From Gammaproteobacteria bacterium (lineage in GTDB: Bacteria; Pseudomonadota; Gammaproteobacteria; UBA4575): DNA of 64,000 nt. The stretch spans positions 672,001-736,000 of the forward strand of contig CBDEUS010000002.1 in assembly GCA_965243395.1 (NCBI GenBank), given 5' to 3'. A program made the translations under genes and the position numbers. Shown here piece by piece: positions 7,236 to 64,000 of the stretch. The notes beneath the pieces are model-generated. The model did not search any database and was not told the origin of the DNA. It was given only the letters and a program-made list of their open reading frames with translations. How positions within the stretch are numbered: position 1 is the stretch's first letter; each line of letters begins with the position of its first letter.

Positions 7236-7946
7236 ATGGATACACAAAAATTATTTGTTTTAATTTTGATTTTTCCTCTATTTGGTTTTTCCTCACAATC
7301 TTATTCGTTAATATCTTCCGTAAGAGCAAATCAATTGCACTTACAAGCTGAATTCGGCGATTCAGTTTCTCAACATAAGCTTGCAAATCACTATAACTCT
7401 AAAATTGGAATTTTACGTAAACCGGTGCTTGCAAAAAAATGGTATCGGGCAGCTGCGTTAAATGGGCATATCGAATCACAAAACCATCTTGGATTACTTT
7501 ATCTTGAGTTTAGAAATTATATTGAAGCGAAAGTTTGGTTTGAAAGTGCCGCATCGCATGGCCATGCTCGTGCACATTCAAACTTAGCCGGTATGTACGA
7601 GACAGGAGATGGTGTCTTAATAAATAGAAAAAAAGCTCACTCACTTTACCTAAAGGGTGCCTCTTTGGGAGATGTTCAAGCAATGTATAAGGTGAGTTTA
7701 AATCTCACTTCAGGTGATTTTTTAAAGAAAGATTATTTTAACGGTTGTGTTTGGATTTACCGTGCAGAAAGTTTTCTTAACAAAACAAATGCTAGCAAAA
7801 CATTAGTGCAAGAAATATTAAGCCAAAAACAAAATTGTCAAAAATTACTTTCAAAAACACAAATTATTGATGCACATGAAGCTGCTAGCTATAGTTTTTC
7901 TAAAAATAATGTAAATTTTAAAAAACTGATGAGCTTAACTCATTAA
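7236..7946 (+). CDS. Sel1-like repeat protein with signal peptide
   Basis: Repeated A..W...AA..G...AQ/H..LG/A..Y units. Confidence 0.82.
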   Translation: MDTQKLFVLILIFPLFGFSSQSYSLISSVRANQLHLQAEFGDSVSQHKLANHYNSKIGILRKPVLAKKWYRAAALNGHIESQNHLGLLYLEFRNYIEAKVWFESAASHGHARAHSNLAGMYETGDGVLINRKKAHSLYLKGASLGDVQAMYKVSLNLTSGDFLKKDYFNGCVWIYRAESFLNKTNASKTLVQEILSQKQNCQKLLSKTQIIDAHEAASYSFSKNNVNFKKLMSLTH

Positions 7947-8730
7947 CTGCTACTAACATTTCTGGATCATCTGTTAGCGCTTGAGAAATACAGCTTGAGC
8001 ATGCAGTAACGGGATTTACACCACTGACAATTAACTTCCCTGCATGTACTAATAAGCGTGTACTTGCACCTTCGTCTAAGCCGCTACCTTTTAAGTTGCG
8101 TGTCATTTGAGCAAACTTAACAAGTTGCCGAGCAGTGTTGTTATCTATTTGAGTTTCTTTTTCAATAATTTTTTGTTCCGTAGCAGCGTTAGGGTAGTCA
8201 AACTCTAATGCTACAAAACGTTGACGTGTACTTTGTTTTAGATCTTTTAATACGCTTTGATATCCAGGGTTATAAGAAATAGCCATGCTAAATTCAGGTG
8301 GGGCTTCAAGTAGTTCGCCAAGTTTTTCCATCGGCATCACACGTCGATCATCACAAAGAGGGTGAATCACGACGGTTGTGTCTTTGCGCGCTTCTACAAT
8401 TTCATCTAAGTAGCAAATACCCCCGGCACGAACCGAGCGCGCCAGTGGGCCATCTACCCATACGGTTTCACCACCGGTAACTAAATAGCGTCCCACAAGA
8501 TCGGAGGCTGTTAAATCATCATGACAAGAAACGGTAATGAGGGGGCGCTTCAACTTCCAGGCCATATACTCCATGAAACGAGTTTTCCCACATCCTGTAG
8601 GACCTTTTAGTAGAACAGGTAATTGATTTGAGTAAGCCGCCTCAAAAACATTAATTTCATCACCCACTGGCTCGTAATATGGCTCATCTTTAACGAAATA
8701 TTCTTCTAATTTGAAGGATTTGGCTTGCAT
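7918..8730 (-). CDS. CbbQ/NirQ/NorQ-family MoxR AAA+ ATPase
   Basis: GPTGCGKT Walker A, CYLDEIVEAR, SYNPGYQS, KDLKQSTRQRF and GASTRLL. Confidence 0.92.
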   Translation of the reverse strand: MQAKSFKLEEYFVKDEPYYEPVGDEINVFEAAYSNQLPVLLKGPTGCGKTRFMEYMAWKLKRPLITVSCHDDLTASDLVGRYLVTGGETVWVDGPLARSVRAGGICYLDEIVEARKDTTVVIHPLCDDRRVMPMEKLGELLEAPPEFSMAISYNPGYQSVLKDLKQSTRQRFVALEFDYPNAATEQKIIEKETQIDNNTARQLVKFAQMTRNLKGSGLDEGASTRLLVHAGKLIVSGVNPVTACSSCISQALTDDPEMLVAVNELSSSVF

Positions 8731-49437: not shown

Positions 49438-50412
49438 TTATTGTTTAAAACGGCGATCTTGTTTTACACGATCGAGAATTAAATAAAGTTCACTAATGGT
49501 TTGTATGTAGTTTGCTTGGATTTCTTGAAGTACATCAAAGTAAGCAGCTGTTCCACTTCCCGTTACAACAATTTCAATACTATTGTTTAATTCTCGGCGT
49601 AGCTTGCGTAATTGATTTGGTAATAATGGATCATCAGCGGGTCGTGTTATACCAATCGCTACTAATTGTGCATCGCTTTGTTGTTGAGCAAAGATTATTT
49701 CGTCTACCGTTCCATACATACCTAAAAATATTGCATCCCAACCGTTTGATTTGCTAGCAGCAGCTAAGCGCAAGGCTGCAATATCACTTACAGGTCCCGC
49801 AGGTGAAGCGCAGATTAATTTATATTCAGATTCAACAAAGGGTTCATTCATAACCAAGTTTGAGAGAAATGCCCGTATAGAATAAATAGCTATTGCATAA
49901 TGAGTATCACGTAAGGCGCCGCGGCGACATTCGTCCTGAATGTGCGAAACCAGTGGTCGTAGCAAGTCTTCTAATAAAAAAATAATGCCTAACGATTTTG
50001 ATGCATCGCTAAGCGAATGATAAATGTCGTAACTATTGAACCGTTGTACTGCATCTAAACAGTCATCGAAATATTCCATCACGGATCCCGTGCTGGGACG
50101 CTGTTCTATTTTTGCGAGTGGTAAACGCGCTGCTGCGGATTCATCTTTATCAACTAACTCACGAAGTTTATCCATGGGTAAACTCGCAACATCGCCAATT
50201 CGACGCCCTGCTGAGGTCGCGCGCCGCAGCATAATAAGTTTTTCAACGTCACTATCGCTATACAATCTTCGAGCGTTACTGGCTCTTTCTGGTGTGACTA
50301 CTCCATAACGACGTTCCCACACACGTATGACATCCGCCGTAAGTCCGGTACGTCTGGCGACTACTTGAATGGGGTGCTCATGCACTAAAACGTTTGTCTG
50401 TTTGCCTGCCAC
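49438..50412 (-). CDS. MerR-family regulator with degenerate cobalamin-binding domains (CarH/LitR-like)
   Basis: MerR HTH (IRVWERRYGVVTPER…RLYS), then a four-helix bundle and a Rossmann-like domain (ICASPAG…IFLG). Confidence 0.82.
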   Translation of the reverse strand: MAGKQTNVLVHEHPIQVVARRTGLTADVIRVWERRYGVVTPERASNARRLYSDSDVEKLIMLRRATSAGRRIGDVASLPMDKLRELVDKDESAAARLPLAKIEQRPSTGSVMEYFDDCLDAVQRFNSYDIYHSLSDASKSLGIIFLLEDLLRPLVSHIQDECRRGALRDTHYAIAIYSIRAFLSNLVMNEPFVESEYKLICASPAGPVSDIAALRLAAASKSNGWDAIFLGMYGTVDEIIFAQQQSDAQLVAIGITRPADDPLLPNQLRKLRRELNNSIEIVVTGSGTAAYFDVLQEIQANYIQTISELYLILDRVKQDRRFKQ

Positions 50413-50419
50413 GTTAATC

Positions 50420-50505
50420 TGTCATAGTTATGTCTAGCTTATTGTACCAATTTTGTCTGTTTAATAAAACATATCTAGGGCATCGTCATAGCTTTGTATT
50501 AGACA
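50420..50505. promoter_or_regulatory. Tandem ~11-bp direct repeats, CarH-type operator candidate
   Basis: TGT-led units at 50420, 50431, 50443 and 50454, plus CGT/TGT at 50484 and 50495 (e.g. TGTCATAGTTA, TGTCTAGCTTA). Confidence 0.5.
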
Positions 50506-50532
50506 AATACCGGTCATATGAGAGGTAGCTGC

Positions 50533-50562
50533 TTGTGTCGTGGAGACCTTGGGTGCTATATT
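50533..50562 (+). promoter_or_regulatory. Putative sigma70 promoter for the monooxygenase
   Basis: TTGTGT-N18-TATATT with an extended -10 TG at 50554. Confidence 0.4.
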
Positions 50563-50568
50563 TATGTC

Positions 50569-50689
50569 ATCGAAAGATCTTTATGCAAACCAAATATCCC
50601 CCATGATTTTGGTTTGTTAGGAAACAGGTATGTATATCTAGCCTATAGTCTGGATTGATACTTGTCGCAACCGTTAGGTTTTACCTGAC
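50569..50689 (+). other. Structured 5' leader with four predicted hairpins
   Basis: ATC-GAAA-GAT; GCAAACCAAA/TTTGGTTTGT; ACAGGTAT…ATCTAG/CTGGAT…ATACTTGT; GTTAGGT/ACCTGAC. The three longer stems use G-U pairs on the + strand. Confidence 0.45.
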
Positions 50690-50706
50690 ATGAACTAGGA
50701 GCGAAC

Positions 50707-51855
50707 ATGAAGAAACTATTAATCAACGCGCGCTATTTTTTAGCCCCGTTTTTAATATTAGCGAGTTTATTCGGTGTATTAGCGGGGGGTCCATGGGTAT
50801 GGACCGGCGTATTACTACTGGGACTGGGTATCATCATAGACACCCTGACAACAGCACAAACACCCGGCGCGGGATTTGACGAAAACGGCGACACCAACGG
50901 CATCGTGCCCTTACTGAATGGCACCATGTACGGCATGCTGGCGGTATTTGTCCTTTTGCAACTGGCCCTTGCCTGGCGCATCTGGCAATACACCAACGGC
51001 GTCCCTGTTGTACCGGGGGGTGAAACCATCCTGGGCCTTGCGGTTCAAGACGGCATCACCGGCAGCCAACTTGTAGGCGCAGTACTATCCACCGGCATCT
51101 TTGCCGGCATCGGCATCATCTACGGACACGAACTGGCGCACACCAAAGGCTTCAGCTTCGTGATTGCGCGCTGGATGATGGCATTAAGTGGCAAAGCCCA
51201 CTTCTGCTACGCGCACGTATACAACCACCACCTAGAACTCGGTCACCAAGACGACCCAGCGACCGCGCCACGCGGGCGCAGCATGTACGCCCACTACCCA
51301 CTATCCGGGTTGGGGCAAAGCAAATTCCTCTTCATGATGGAAAAACAACGTCTTGAAAGACTAGGAGTACCCTTCCTATCCTGGCAAAACCGCTGGATCC
51401 GAGGCTACTTCATGGCATTGCCAACCGTACTTCTGTTCTGGTTCGTAGGCGGCTGGCTTGGCATGCTCTGCTTAGCGGGCGTATGGCTGATCTCCAACTT
51501 CGAACTCGAAGTCCTCAACTACCTTGAGCACTACGGATTGATTCGCGAGAAAGGCCAACCGATTGACTACCGTCATAGCTGGGACAACTCCACCGCGTTT
51601 ACCAGCTGGTTCTTTATCGAGATTGGTCGCCAGGCCGACCATCACGATCGCGGCGAGACCCACTTTTGGGAACTCGACGAAGTGGGTGCACCGAACTGCG
51701 GACGCGGCTACTTCACCCTGTTTGCATTAGGCTTATTGCCACCGGTGTTTCATGCCTACATGAAGCAACAGTTGGCGAAGTGGGATGACGAGATGGCCTC
51801 TGAGGGCGAACTTAAGATCGCGGATCAGATGAATAAACAGGCCGGGTACGCTTAA
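50707..51855 (+). CDS. AlkB/XylM-family integral-membrane non-heme di-iron monooxygenase
   Basis: HELAH, HVYNHH, NYLEHYG and RQADHH boxes, TM segments, XylM-like C-terminus; AGGAG RBS. Confidence 0.88.
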   Translation: MKKLLINARYFLAPFLILASLFGVLAGGPWVWTGVLLLGLGIIIDTLTTAQTPGAGFDENGDTNGIVPLLNGTMYGMLAVFVLLQLALAWRIWQYTNGVPVVPGGETILGLAVQDGITGSQLVGAVLSTGIFAGIGIIYGHELAHTKGFSFVIARWMMALSGKAHFCYAHVYNHHLELGHQDDPATAPRGRSMYAHYPLSGLGQSKFLFMMEKQRLERLGVPFLSWQNRWIRGYFMALPTVLLFWFVGGWLGMLCLAGVWLISNFELEVLNYLEHYGLIREKGQPIDYRHSWDNSTAFTSWFFIEIGRQADHHDRGETHFWELDEVGAPNCGRGYFTLFALGLLPPVFHAYMKQQLAKWDDEMASEGELKIADQMNKQAGYA

Positions 51856-51880
51856 AGAATCGTACTTTTTCATCTAATTT

Positions 51881-51918
51881 AAAAACCCCTGACTCCTTGT
51901 GAGACGGGGGTTTTTTTT
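51881..51918 (+). terminator. Intrinsic terminator
   Basis: AAAAACCCCTG…CGGGGG followed by T8. Confidence 0.8.
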
Positions 51919-51965
51919 GCATTTAATCTTTCCAAAAACTAATAAATCTATATTAAGCTCTTTCA

Positions 51966-52691
51966 ATGGTTGAAAAGTTTGATCCCCAAAAAAATATGAC
52001 TAGGCAAGAATCATTAACTGATTCAGTAAGTTCGTTACAGTCGGGAGATGAACGTGCGTGGTTTGAAAATGAGCTTATAAAATTTCAACAACAATTACGT
52101 GATTTACCAAATCAGGCGAGTAACCTTGAACGTGCCAAACTTGAACTTGAGATAGCTGAAGTATTTATCGGCTTAAATCGTTTAAATGATGCGTGGGAAA
52201 GTGCACGACCACTTGTTGAAATATTTATTGTCGAGCAAGAATTCGAATTTGCTGTGCGAACGTGTCGAGTGCTATATCAAGCTAACCATGAATTATCGAT
52301 CGCTGCATTGGGACAGGGATGTTGGTTAGCGGTAACGTATCCAATAAATCCAACTTTATCAATTGAGATGTTGCATAACATTGTCGATGAAACTCCTGAC
52401 AATTCTGACGGTGCTGCTGTTGCTGCGATGGCAGCACAATACATTGCTGATATGCGTGGTGCAGAAGATCGTGAAAATTTAATGTTTCTTACCACTCAAA
52501 TTGTAGCTAAGGTTGCTAAACGTCATCGAAATATTGAGGATGAAGAATCTATCAAAATATGGATTGAGATTTTAGAACTCAATGATACGGACCAGTTATT
52601 CACACGCTTAGCAAAAGTTATTGACGCCATAACAGCAGATAACTGGTGGTTTAACCGAGACGAACTTCGAGCGCAATTACCTGTTAATTAA
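51966..52691 (+). CDS. Hypothetical alpha-helical protein
   Basis: 241-aa ORF with helical composition. No recognised family. Confidence 0.72.
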   Translation: MVEKFDPQKNMTRQESLTDSVSSLQSGDERAWFENELIKFQQQLRDLPNQASNLERAKLELEIAEVFIGLNRLNDAWESARPLVEIFIVEQEFEFAVRTCRVLYQANHELSIAALGQGCWLAVTYPINPTLSIEMLHNIVDETPDNSDGAAVAAMAAQYIADMRGAEDRENLMFLTTQIVAKVAKRHRNIEDEESIKIWIEILELNDTDQLFTRLAKVIDAITADNWWFNRDELRAQLPVN

Positions 52692-60919: not shown

Positions 60920-63214
60920 ATGCAGACCGATAAAATTAAAGCGCCGGAAGGCCATTCCATTCACCATGTTACCTGTCCTCATGATTGTCCAGATTCATGT
61001 TCCATGTTGGTAACTCGCGATGATTCCACAGGGAAAGCCGTTCGTGTACAAGGTGATCCAACACACCCTATTACGCGTGGTTATTTATGCAATAAGGTGA
61101 ACCACTATCTTGATTTAGTCTACAACGACAATCGTGTTTTATACCCGCACAAGCGTGTGGGTCCAAAAGGTCCAGGCGCAAAGTTTGAACGCATCACTTG
61201 GGACGAAGCTTTGGATGCCATCACTGATAACTTTAAAGAGACTATTGAAAAATACGGACCCGAGGCCGTACAGCCATATTCTTATTCCGGCACCATGGGC
61301 ATGGTGGGGTATTGGACCATGGACTATCGCTTCTGGAACAAGATGCAAGCCGCAGGTTTAGTTCAGTCAATTTGTATTTATGCTGCCATGTGGGCCGATC
61401 TTCACACCTATGGATTGGCGCATCCAAACATGTCTGTGCACGAAGCAGCACAAGAAGCTGATTTAATGATTCTTTGGGGTGCTAATTTAGTCAGCACCGG
61501 TGTGCATGCAATACCATTCATTCGTGAAGCCAAAGAACGTGGTATGAAATTAATTGTAATCGACCCACGTGTCACACGTACCACAATGATGGCGGATTGG
61601 CACATCCAACCTAAACCGGGTACAGATGCAGCATTAGCACTAGGAATGATGAAAGTCATCGTTGATGCAGGTAAACATGATTTAGAGTTTCTTAAAGAAC
61701 AAACCAATGGTTGGGAAGCATTAATCGAAACTAAACTTCCAGATTACCCACTAGATAAAGTTGAAAAGATTACTGGAGTTCCTGCAGCAGACATCGAAAA
61801 ACTGGCATTGGAGTACGCATCAACTAAGAAATCATGTATTCGTGCAAACTATGGATTAAATCGTCACCAGAATGCCGGACAAATGTGTCGAGCAGTTTTG
61901 GTTCTTCCATGTATAACTGGGGCATTCCGTGAAAAATGTGGTGGCGTAAGTTTTGGCACCTTGAATGAGATGTGGTTCCGTTGCATGAGTGATGCATTGC
62001 ATCGCCCTGATTTAGGAACACGTGGGCGTGCAGTTAATATGGTGCAGATTGGTCGTGCATTATCGGAAAATATTGGCCCAGATGGTGAGCAAATGGATCC
62101 ACCAATTAAGAGTATCTTTGTTTATAACTCTGATCCTGCAAACTGTGCACCTAATACCAATGCCGTGCGTGAAGGCTTCATGCGCGATGATTTATTCGTT
62201 GGAGTGCATGAAACATTCTGGACCGATACCTGTAACTACGCCGACATTGTCATCCCTGCGGATACCCAACTGGAACGTATGGATATGGTGGCGACGTATG
62301 GTAATTGGTATTTCACTATGAATAAGCCTGTGATAGAGCCACTAGGTGAAAGTGTGCGTAATTCAGAATTATTCCGCATGTTAGCTAAGAAAATGGGCTA
62401 TGTTGAAGATGGAGATAACGCATTTACACAAACGGATGAAGAAATTATTCGTGATATCTTATGTGACAAAGGCGAATCAAACTTGCTAATGGAAGGCATT
62501 AAATACGAAGACTTTGAAAATGTTGGTTTTGTGCGCGCTAATACCGCAACCGATAGTCGCGACTGGATGAAAAACGGCTGGCCAACTCCATCAGGTAAAA
62601 TTGATATTTGGTGTGAAGCTCTAAAAGAAGAAGGCGTGGATCCTTTACCTACATATGTGCCTGAAATTGAAGGTCAAGAAGATCCCAAGCGCAAGAAATT
62701 TCCGCTACAAGTATTAAGCAGTGCTTCGCATTACTTTATTGGTGATTCATTCCAGTCTGTTCCGCGCTTACAAGCGATGATGTCTAGACCTACCGTTGAA
62801 CTTAATCCAAATGAAGCTGAAAAGCGCGGTTTGCAAGATGGTGATTTATGTCGCATCTATAATGACCGTGGTGAGACGTACGCCTACCTTGTAATTATTG
62901 AAGGTCATGTGGATGGAATATGCTCTACACAAAAGCAATTCAAGGGAAGTAACACTCCTGGCGGGGTAAATGTTAATGCTCTAAACACCGAAATGCTTAC
63001 TGATTTTGGTACAAGTCCGACTTTTTATTCTTGTTTGGCAGAAGTTGAGAAAGCCAGCGAGGATATGCGCAAGCAAGCATTGTTAAAAGAGTGGGGTGGT
63101 AAAAAAGGGTACATCCAAAAGTGGCGCGAAGACCCACGTAATCAAGATGTAGAAGCAAGTGATGATGAAATTATTGCGTTTGCTGAAAAGCAACACCCAG
63201 GAGTATTTAGTTAA
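60920..63214 (+). CDS. Cytoplasmic molybdopterin (Mo-bisPGD, DMSO reductase superfamily) oxidoreductase
   Basis: CPHDCPDSC…LCNK [4Fe-4S] motif, ITWDEAL, VIDPR, PGTDAALALG, YADIVIPA and YNDRGE; no Tat signal; GGAGG RBS. Confidence 0.9.
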   Translation: MQTDKIKAPEGHSIHHVTCPHDCPDSCSMLVTRDDSTGKAVRVQGDPTHPITRGYLCNKVNHYLDLVYNDNRVLYPHKRVGPKGPGAKFERITWDEALDAITDNFKETIEKYGPEAVQPYSYSGTMGMVGYWTMDYRFWNKMQAAGLVQSICIYAAMWADLHTYGLAHPNMSVHEAAQEADLMILWGANLVSTGVHAIPFIREAKERGMKLIVIDPRVTRTTMMADWHIQPKPGTDAALALGMMKVIVDAGKHDLEFLKEQTNGWEALIETKLPDYPLDKVEKITGVPAADIEKLALEYASTKKSCIRANYGLNRHQNAGQMCRAVLVLPCITGAFREKCGGVSFGTLNEMWFRCMSDALHRPDLGTRGRAVNMVQIGRALSENIGPDGEQMDPPIKSIFVYNSDPANCAPNTNAVREGFMRDDLFVGVHETFWTDTCNYADIVIPADTQLERMDMVATYGNWYFTMNKPVIEPLGESVRNSELFRMLAKKMGYVEDGDNAFTQTDEEIIRDILCDKGESNLLMEGIKYEDFENVGFVRANTATDSRDWMKNGWPTPSGKIDIWCEALKEEGVDPLPTYVPEIEGQEDPKRKKFPLQVLSSASHYFIGDSFQSVPRLQAMMSRPTVELNPNEAEKRGLQDGDLCRIYNDRGETYAYLVIIEGHVDGICSTQKQFKGSNTPGGVNVNALNTEMLTDFGTSPTFYSCLAEVEKASEDMRKQALLKEWGGKKGYIQKWREDPRNQDVEASDDEIIAFAEKQHPGVFS

Positions 63215-63283: not shown

Positions 63284-64000
63284 ATGGCGGCAGCACAAAA
63301 AAACTTTCACGACCCGTTTGATTTCTACATAAGGAAATTACCCGAACCCGACCGTGATATTCAAACAAAACGCGTAAGTGTAAGTAGTGGTGTAATCAAA
63401 AGTGTTGAAAATTTAACTTACGACACTTACAAAATTGTAATTAAGTGTAGTGATGATGCGCCTCAAATGGTTGCGACCGCGGGTCAATACGCGACCATCA
63501 AAGTTCCTGGTTGCAGAAAACCACGTTCTTATTCATTAGCGAAAGCACCTGAAAATGAAAACCCAGATGAACATACTTTTTTTATTCGCTTAGTGCATGG
63601 CGGCAAACTTTCAAGCTGGATTGCCGAAGGGAATCGTGAGGGCGAGCATGTGGTTATTTCAGGACCGCTTGGAAAATTCTCACTTGATAGTAGTAATAAA
63701 ACAATGGTCTGTATTGCCGGCGGTAGTGGCATGAGTGCTGTTAACGCTATTGTTGAACATGCATGTAATAAACAAGTTGAGCGTGACTGTTACTTTTTTT
63801 ATGGGGCGAGGACACAAGCTGACTTATATTTACAGGAAGAGATGCGAGAAATCGAACGCAAGTGGAATAAAAATTTTAGTTTTAAATTTATTCCAGTGTT
63901 ATCAGAGGAAGCAGAGGATAGTGATTGGGATGGTCCGCGCGGATTTGTAACAGAGCATTTTAAAGATGAATATTTAAATAAAGGTGTTGTTTCGGTTAAT
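63284..64000 (+). CDS. XylA-like FAD/NAD(P)H oxidoreductase, truncated by the window end
   Basis: Not in the ORF track. GAGGAG RBS, ATG 63284, open to the end of the window. Motifs AGQY, RSYS, GGKLSSW, GPLG, CIAGGSG, FFYGART and VLSEE…W.G.RGFVTE. Confidence 0.88.
   Translation, partial: MAAAQKNFHDPFDFYIRKLPEPDRDIQTKRVSVSSGVIKSVENLTYDTYKIVIKCSDDAPQMVATAGQYATIKVPGCRKPRSYSLAKAPENENPDEHTFFIRLVHGGKLSSWIAEGNREGEHVVISGPLGKFSLDSSNKTMVCIAGGSGMSAVNAIVEHACNKQVERDCYFFYGARTQADLYLQEEMREIERKWNKNFSFKFIPVLSEEAEDSDWDGPRGFVTEHFKDEYLNKGVVSVN

Follow-up and report, generated by a model that had tools for sequence, protein, structure and literature searches.

A 64,000-nucleotide stretch of contig CBDEUS010000002.1 (positions 672,001 to 736,000; hereafter the window) from a gammaproteobacterium of the UBA4575 lineage (assembly GCA_965243395.1) raises the question of what is oxidized, and under what control, by a membrane di-iron monooxygenase whose gene stands divergently beside that of a CarH-fold MerR regulator. 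A first-pass annotation had suggested that the pair may be an undescribed, self-contained regulated oxygenase system, acting on a methylated or organic sulfur compound or, equally possibly, on an alkane, alkylaromatic or lipid. The two divergent genes and the terminator are real: the open reading frames lie at the coordinates and on the strands given by that annotation (Table 1), and the hairpin at 51881-51915 (-18 kcal/mol, z -5.0) is equalled in 0 of 200 shuffles and directly followed by a U-tract, this terminator being the one observation behind the call that the oxygenase is monocistronic. We propose that an undescribed regulated oxygenase is indeed at hand, that its likeliest substrate, judged by gene association, is a methylated sulfur compound, and that it probably cleaves dimethylsulfide (DMS) with O2 to methanethiol and formaldehyde, making it a candidate DMS monooxygenase.

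Table 1. Features of the regulator-oxygenase locus and of the reductase gene at the window's end
Feature	Position	Strand	Remarks
CarH-fold MerR regulator	49438..50412	-	324 aa; B12 motifs absent; Cys162, invariant, where CarH has Trp131
Putative operator array, TGT(C/A)YA units (reading TnnACA on the regulator's strand)	50418..50505		units at 50420, 50431, 50443, 50454; binding predicted
Weaker operator units	50472, 50484		within array 50418..50505
Array-ending palindrome TGTATTAGACA	50495-50505		
Putative extended -10 TGGTACAAT of regulator gene	50441..50449	-	inside third repeat; consensus match only
Putative extended -10 TGCTATATT of oxygenase gene	50554..50562	+	48 nt after palindrome
Gene-conversion tract (putative)	50704..51855	+	partner G000:C1:559375-560526; 99.913% over 1152 nt
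Membrane di-iron monooxygenase of AlkB/XylM fold, in a clade of its own	50707..51855	+	382 aa; candidate catalytic subunit of a DMS monooxygenase
Intrinsic terminator hairpin and U-tract	51881..51919	+	from folding and shuffles
FAD/NAD reductase, 5' part of a 375-aa protein	63284..64000	+	no 2Fe-2S domain; C-terminal Cys clusters

The oxygenase represents a family of its own. It matches FA_desaturase in Pfam and no family in NCBIfam, and a PDB sequence search returns the AlkB of F. thermophila as its sole match (E 1e-26). The predicted structure (predicted local distance difference test, pLDDT, 94) aligns with AlkB (8f6t, 8sbb) at template modelling (TM) scores of 0.76-0.77, with AlkB structures alone passing E 0.001. 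Its conserved residues comprise Q309 and eight histidines (H141, H145, H170, H174, H175, H275, H312, H313), which are invariant in 59 rows and align with the eight ligands of AlkB. The last histidine box, LQRHSDHH in AlkB, reads IGRQ[AG]DHH in 126/126 family members; glutamine thus replaces its first histidine throughout the family and in 0/108 outer representatives, of which 94 have His, one has Trp and 13 show no motif match. The second box is AHVYNHH, as against EHxxGHH in AlkB. Among 1.84 billion representatives of 50% clusters the family makes up a single full-length cluster, its next full-length relatives being ~30-37% identical. A FastTree phylogeny of 83 rows (54 of the 108 eligible outer representatives and three AlkB rows, with characterised desaturases left out) recovers it as a single clade, with support of 100 and a stem of 1.06, separate from AlkB and XylM, with deeper branching not settled and long branches flagged; the enzyme thus lies outside the AlkB clade, and the objection that it might merely nest there falls away.

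Identity to both XylM and AlkB is ~30% (31.5% over 68% of the length for XylM). The enzyme can be placed, as a variant, in the XylM/XylA kind, with chemistry and regulation that are probably new. With the XylM/XylA system of pWW0 it shares the combination of a membrane di-iron hydroxylase with a Fer2-FAD-NAD reductase, the AH..HH second box and, in related clusters, a FadL/TodX channel reminiscent of XylN. It differs in its separate clade, in having a ferredoxin, a GST-like protein and a small membrane subunit in addition, in its link to mtoX, and in that xylCB-type dehydrogenases (for benzyl alcohol and benzaldehyde), present on pWW0, were not seen in the oxygenase loci read. Nor, unlike AlkB, does it have a rubredoxin partner in those loci; the single rubredoxin match of the genome is unlinked, among thiamine/haem genes. 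A Pfam scan of 36 of the 73 window open reading frames likewise found no rubredoxin, AlkS/TetR or crt family.

The redox partners sit elsewhere, and the module is therefore not self-contained as first described. The organism's genome (G000, 100% complete, contigs C1 and C2) carries a second oxygenase copy at G000:C1:559378, identical to the window gene at 99.913% over 1152 nt, from just before start to stop, with unrelated flanks. This copy comes first in an operon whose further products are a ferredoxin (59 aa), a GST-like protein, a Fer2-FAD-NAD reductase of 359 aa (G000:C1:561733; 40% identity to pWW0 XylA) and a membrane protein of 75 aa. A paralogue of 60% identity lies 7 kb ahead of the window, at C2:664848, next to two GST-like genes and one for a 70-aa membrane protein. 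Two arrangements recur among 80 loci of other genomes: type A, that of the window, with the regulator divergent from the oxygenase (38/80), and type B, pnp-msrB-oxygenase-ferredoxin-GST-reductase-small protein, the ferredoxin and GST genes being present in 19/80; no locus combines the regulator with both (0/80). The regulator is accordingly a conserved divergent neighbour of the oxygenase, which answers the concern that the pairing might be fortuitous. In three genomes (G018, G024, G030) the sole oxygenase copy found is at locus A, and locus B keeps all partners minus the oxygenase; hence, by gene content, the predicted enzyme of locus A must draw on the locus-B partners in trans. Two more (G017, G026) have a different layout, with the reductase far from their single copy. 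Association of the enzyme with the 75-aa protein is predicted, and a structural model of the complex supports it: the model scores 0.87, against 0.00 for the best control, with contact agreement of at least 84% and partner pLDDT of at least 78, the scoring mark being one attained by 116/157 solved complexes and 2/215 mismatched pairs.

The reductase gene at 63284, earlier nominated as the oxygenase's partner, encodes a paralogue that shares 47.5% identity with the operon reductase's FAD/NAD part; without a 2Fe-2S domain of its own, it is demoted from cognate reductase to second-choice donor. A stand-alone ferredoxin at G000 C1:1112701, 60% identical to the operon reductase's 2Fe-2S domain, could form with it a second, split electron chain. 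Genes of the 63284 type lie 4-7 kb from the oxygenase in 12 related loci, and in the window this one comes next after a gene (60920-63214) for a molybdopterin guanine dinucleotide (Mo-bisPGD) oxidoreductase, every NCBIfam match of which is below cut-off.

What the enzyme acts on is suggested by the company it keeps across genomes. In the organism's own family (36 genomes, fragments included) the oxygenase is matched in 34 and mtoX in 35. A class sample of 400 genomes has the enzyme in 15, mtoX in 30 and both in 14 (9/10 families), i.e., mtoX occurs in 14/15 enzyme-bearing versus 16/385 other genomes. The family around locus L088 (83 genomes) repeats the pattern, with the enzyme in 14, mtoX in 15, both in 13, and mtoX in two of the 69 enzyme-less genomes; seven of the 13 co-carriers have the two on one contig, 5-23 kb apart. 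Linkage at 1.3-23 kb is found in several families, and also in G049, G289, G439, G443, G249 and G407.

Cultured relatives point the same way. P0121, from the family around L088 and 68% identical to the window enzyme, is record EEF81234.1, 'Fatty acid desaturase domain protein' of M. thiooxydans, its gene adjoining one for 'Cyanoglobin/HbN', and P0130 comes from M. sulfidovorans; in the accessible part of PMC6548844 these species are the two mtoX carriers among six Methylophaga genomes. The Methylophaga-type cluster runs oxygenase-globin-ferredoxin-GST-reductase-small protein-FadL-type channel and lies ~8 kb from mtoX. Table S6 of the same paper lists, for DMS versus methanol, values of 1359 versus 10 for a desaturase, 601 versus 21 for a globin, 618 versus 12 for an NAD-binding oxidoreductase and 17350 versus 37 for mtoX; the desaturase-named gene, tied to P0121 through its annotation name, is hence induced 136-fold on DMS. 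As far as the available text goes, PMC6548844, whose proteomics covered soluble fractions, and the 2022 paper PMC9563715 both leave the first enzyme of DMS use in Methylophaga unidentified.

The organism's own metabolism is consistent with such a substrate. Its genome codes above cut-off for MtoX, two Fae, Mch, FhcD and malate-CoA ligase beta, and it has AprA; RuBisCO, Hps and PQQ alcohol dehydrogenase have no above-cut-off match in it. A serine-cycle-like cluster (Ppc-, Hpr-, MtkAB-, Mcl- and Sga-like) lies at G000:C1:143753-153132 (L240). To judge by these genes the organism would be a one-carbon user unable to use methanol by the usual route, and a one-carbon user without methanol dehydrogenase would depend on a substrate from which formaldehyde arises directly, and DMS would be one. 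The proposed overall reaction is that assigned to the flavin-dependent DmoAB of Hyphomicrobium. That system belongs to an unrelated protein family, the DmoA/SfnG luciferase-like PF00296, with no match in our genome (a control found it in 9/14). The available portion of PMC13352529 describes the reaction type. For heteroatom demethylation by an AlkB-type enzyme there is a precedent in MdpA, which reportedly acts on methyl tert-butyl ether (MTBE); our searches retrieved no literature on MdpA/MTBE or on chloroform inhibition. Nor did we find a paper tying DMS oxidation to an AlkB/XylM-type enzyme, with subscription papers (Boden 2010 included) and bioRxiv supplements lying outside the search.

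Several observations weigh against this assignment. In two genomes (G440, G079) the enzyme occurs but mtoX has no match, 16 of the 30 mtoX genomes in the class sample lack the enzyme, and in the organism's own genome mtoX is ~98 kb from the nearest oxygenase copy; further, the genomes are related by descent, so that Fisher values for the co-occurrence overstate it. On the Methylophaga side, P0121 is equated with MDMS009_226 by matching names alone, the supplements of PMC6548844 giving no accession, and Table S6 is a selection in a study with many unrelated genes up on DMS; in it the strands of two mtoX rows also look swapped relative to the cluster neighbours, which leaves the argument unaffected. 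The Methylophaga-type cluster lacks the regulator, and the induction there is uninformative on the window promoter. The authors, in the part accessible, interpret the desaturase as serving to repair lipids under H2O2, and cite Boden et al. 2010 for an absence of DMS monooxygenase activity in M. thiooxydans and for a methyltransferase instead (PMC6548844). M. aminisulfidivorans is reported, in a source available in part, to grow on DMS without mtoX. Finally, a hint of light or oxidative stress comes from loci L037 and L039, where a third oxygenase copy is placed under a LitR-like regulator and, in L039, has photolyase-like neighbours.

The best-surviving alternative, though rather improbable in our estimation, is that the enzyme performs another chemistry, oxidizing DMS to dimethylsulfoxide (DMSO) or attacking another small methylated or volatile compound that accompanies methanethiol metabolism. 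Neither co-occurrence nor induction settles which product forms, thioether sulfoxidation by broad monooxygenases is common, and the Mo-bisPGD enzyme at 60920 would suit this alternative; in the accessible text of PMC9563715, Tmm co-oxidises DMS to DMSO. Yet the tie to mtoX fits a methanethiol product, methanethiol is a reported intermediate in Methylophaga (in a source available in part), and the genome has no match to the luciferase-like SfnG/MsuD family for further use of DMSO.

Comparably improbable is that the protein desaturates or hydroxylates membrane lipids under oxidative or light stress and that H2O2 from MtoX induces it indirectly, with a regulator that senses light or oxidants and serves fabA as well. 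This would account for the FA_desaturase match, for the msrB gene preceding the other oxygenase copy, for the neighbours of the third copies and for fabA adjoining the regulator in 33/38 loci; front-end desaturases also have glutamine in the third histidine box, and this is the reading that PMC6548844, as far as accessible, adopts. Against it stand the exclusively AlkB hits of the fold search, the XylA-type reductase and FadL/TodX-type channel of the clusters, and a separate DesA in the genome. Moreover, five loci retain the regulator-oxygenase pair without fabA and eight retain fabA without the regulator, for which reason a role as fabA regulator is not favoured either. An alkane or alkylaromatic hydroxylase of the AlkB/XylM type, despite the AlkB fold (TM 0.76), the ~30% identity to XylM/AlkB and the XylA-like partner, is very improbable given the separate clade, the loci read with neither rubredoxin nor xylCB-type dehydrogenases, a lone Rieske ring-hydroxylase-family gene below every NCBIfam cut-off and an mtoX pattern it leaves unexplained, so that such substrates are less likely than a methylated sulfur compound and not equally possible as first supposed.

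The near-identity of the two oxygenase copies calls for an explanation of its own. In each of the 15 genomes that have both loci (the organism's own and 14 others) the copies within a genome are 98.0-100% identical (0-23 differences), as against at most 72.6-90.3% between genomes, and in the tree each genome's two copies group together. The two loci keep their synteny throughout the family, which points to concerted evolution, not repeated fresh duplication; the copies thus appear to have been homogenised by gene conversion. Assembly collapse was rejected as a cause, since it cannot merge sequences 10-25% apart. The four-fold-site G+C is above that of the neighbours in 13/14 two-copy loci (mean +0.21), compared with -0.03 at three single-copy loci, -0.01 at two divergent third copies and -0.09 at four Methylophaga-type loci; ten loci of unchecked copy number give +0.06. 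The tuf pair of the same genome is raised alike (0.73 versus 0.65; genome 0.31). As the excess tracks copy number and the tuf pair behaves similarly, GC-biased gene conversion is the likeliest cause. High expression was rejected, the ribosomal-protein genes being unbiased (0.28 versus 0.31 for the genome) and tuf biased, as was recent horizontal transfer, both loci being syntenic family-wide and the excess following copy number. The likeness to tufA/tufB lies in the dispersed near-identical copies and the shared G+C rise; pmoCAB/amoCAB are further multi-copy homogenised genes. Unlike in tuf-type pairs, the catalytic gene alone is doubled, the operon not, and the copies are under different promoters.

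The two oxygenase copies rank 1 and 2 among 1953 genes for C-ending codons, and the top six are the tuf pair, the oxygenase pair and another dispersed 99.9% pair (G000:C1:591754-593103 and C2:1003823-1005172), for a 449-aa protein, likely a substrate-binding protein, in an ATP-binding cassette transporter cluster.

The second half of the question concerns control. The regulator combines a MerR helix-turn-helix with a bundle of four helices and with a Rossmann domain, its PDB sequence match is the CarH of T. thermophilus, the fold search agrees (Foldseek E 4.8e-13 to 5c8d), and in Pfam it matches MerR_1 and, below cut-off, a B12-binding domain (30.6 versus 32.1 bits); its NCBIfam CarH score is 60 bits versus a cut-off of 400. 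CarH proteins are defined, in the accessible part of PMC8156234, by the motifs Wx9EH and ExHxxG, and their operator is given there as tandem 11-bp TnnACA repeats. None of 39 regulators from oxygenase loci has Wx9EH or E/DxHxxG. In all 39, at 35-100% identity, a cysteine within ECxxG, Cys162 here, takes the place of CarH Trp131, and the nearby pocket residues drift. The label CarH-like therefore holds for fold and operator, shared with CarH/LitR of T. thermophilus, B. megaterium and M. xanthus and with CarA, and fails for B12 and light sensing; the target, too, is an oxygenase and not crt. In a tree of 91 rows the cysteine-bearing, motif-less form makes up a single clade, with 31 members and support of 82, nested among motif-bearing CarH-type proteins. 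Four rows have the cysteine and retain the B12 motifs: these CarH-type regulators of L222, L223, L140 and L141, with cysteine for Trp131 and with EH and the cobalt histidine kept, could be cobalamin-binding intermediates. No paper describing this regulator was found in a search that subscription papers and bioRxiv supplements lay outside.

The regulator follows the enzyme closely. All seven genomes of the class sample with the motif-less regulator carry the enzyme, adjacent in five; in the organism's own family the regulator occurs in 26/36 genomes, verifiably divergent from an oxygenase match in 20 of the 26, the other six being draft genomes with no adjacent oxygenase match. Genera g3, g4 and g10 keep the enzyme and lack the regulator. 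Pieces of relatives' oxygenase gene, none of the regulator, occur in metatranscriptome contigs of three sediment runs, which cannot rank expression; run X8 yielded nothing. A second MerR type with a Cys-rich C-terminus, which we take to be class II LitR-like, is divergent from the third oxygenase copy (L037:2758-5454, L039:8480-11143) and has a paralogue in the organism's own genome (G000:C1:1116253-1117242).

The intergenic region bears the predicted binding sites. In the intergenic regions of 32 loci, TGT pairs at spacings of 11/12/22/23/33-35 nt number 170 versus 32 +/- 5 in shuffles, as against 3 versus 4.7 at seven regulator-less A loci and 8 versus 7.9 in 18 B upstream regions. A repeat model trained with the organism's own genome left out ranks the window array first genome-wide (29.2); the next matches, 21.1 and 19.5 (top of shuffles 18.3), are in coding sequence, and hence no second convincing operator was found in the genome. 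Methylophaga-type loci have no operator-like array (best scores 7-11), and in two genomes with an unlinked regulator (G289, G439) TGT runs scoring 18.0 and 10.7 lie upstream of one oxygenase copy. A sigma-70 scan of the intergenic region found no promoter, and the extended -10 boxes of Table 1 were derived from the alignment. The array spans the -10-like box of the regulator gene, and quite probably the regulator represses its own gene through it. The palindrome TGTMYWAGACA, present in 17/39 loci, lies upstream of the predicted -35 of the oxygenase gene, 46-48 nt from its extended -10 in 12 of the 17, 26 nt in two and 34 nt in one (no box in two); the two main spacings differ by two helical turns. 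That the regulator activates the oxygenase promoter is a tentative, nearly even call from this geometry.

As to the signal, a cysteine-based switch responding to sulfur or peroxide is possible, and we hold it tentatively. It is also conceivable, and again uncertain, that the protein is a plain B12-independent repressor of the CarA kind, freed by a partner protein or ligand, with Cys162 structural. CarA, in the available text of PMC8156234, represses without B12; Cys118 also occurs in 27/58 Trp-type relatives, so that a conserved cysteine is not always a sensor; and the regulator is lost in g3, g4 and g10 though the enzyme is kept. A purely structural role sits less easily with Cys162 being held in 39/39 regulators while its pocket neighbours drift, and plain repression with a palindrome at a fixed distance upstream of the predicted -35, which CarA and CarH sites overlap (PMC8156234, accessible part).

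We advance the following mechanism for the candidate DMS monooxygenase. Electrons would pass from NADH to the XylA-type reductase, perhaps via the 59-aa ferredoxin, and on to the di-iron site. There a methyl C-H of DMS would be hydroxylated, the resulting hemithioacetal giving methanethiol and formaldehyde, perhaps with help from the GST-like protein. The genes for what would follow are present: MtoX could oxidise the methanethiol, Fae with the tetrahydromethanopterin pathway and serine-cycle enzymes could take the formaldehyde, and AprMBA the downstream sulfur. The window gene would act as a stand-alone second copy, its identity apparently kept by gene conversion, whose product, as the model supports, would assemble with the 75-aa membrane protein of the other locus. 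The CarH-fold protein would bind the 11-bp repeats, repress its own promoter and tune, probably by activation, the extra oxygenase copy, the signal being read by Cys162 (a thiol, sulfane sulfur or peroxide) and not by B12 and light. The full composite, i.e., a new DMS-cleaving class of two-subunit membrane di-iron enzymes with eight histidines and one glutamine that is the missing Methylophaga step, with tuf-like converted copies and a CarH descendant turned cysteine-based, sulfur-sensing activator, is doubtful as a whole.

Among the neighbouring genes, 51966-52691 (+) encodes a 241-aa protein without a Pfam or NCBIfam match, kept 3' of the oxygenase at most type-A loci, regulator-lost ones included. 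A CbbQ/NirQ/NorQ AAA ATPase gene (7918-8730, -) lies before aprMBA in the window; at Methylophaga-type clusters (L101:11160-14068) a VWA and CbbQ pair, perhaps a metal-insertion chaperone, is divergent from the oxygenase. The contig ends (C1:1-9348, C1:1272337-1279210 and the matching C2 ends) consist of long perfect tandem repeats with 387-nt and 318-nt units, which lie inside giant repeat proteins and explain the two assembly breaks.

According to the accessible part of PMC13352529, bacteria account for 80% of marine DMS removal. If our proposal is true, the unidentified first DMS step of Methylophaga and of many uncultured marine bacteria would be explained, and the oxygenase would be a marker gene for DMS consumers. 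The family offers a defined five-gene set for expression and a single gene for deletion, which opens the initial step in DMS use to direct testing; going by the partner list, expression of the window gene alone or with the 63284 reductase would probably fail. The regulator, if read correctly, would be a B12 photoreceptor scaffold reused for another signal, with intermediates that join the cysteine to the B12 motifs among the data.

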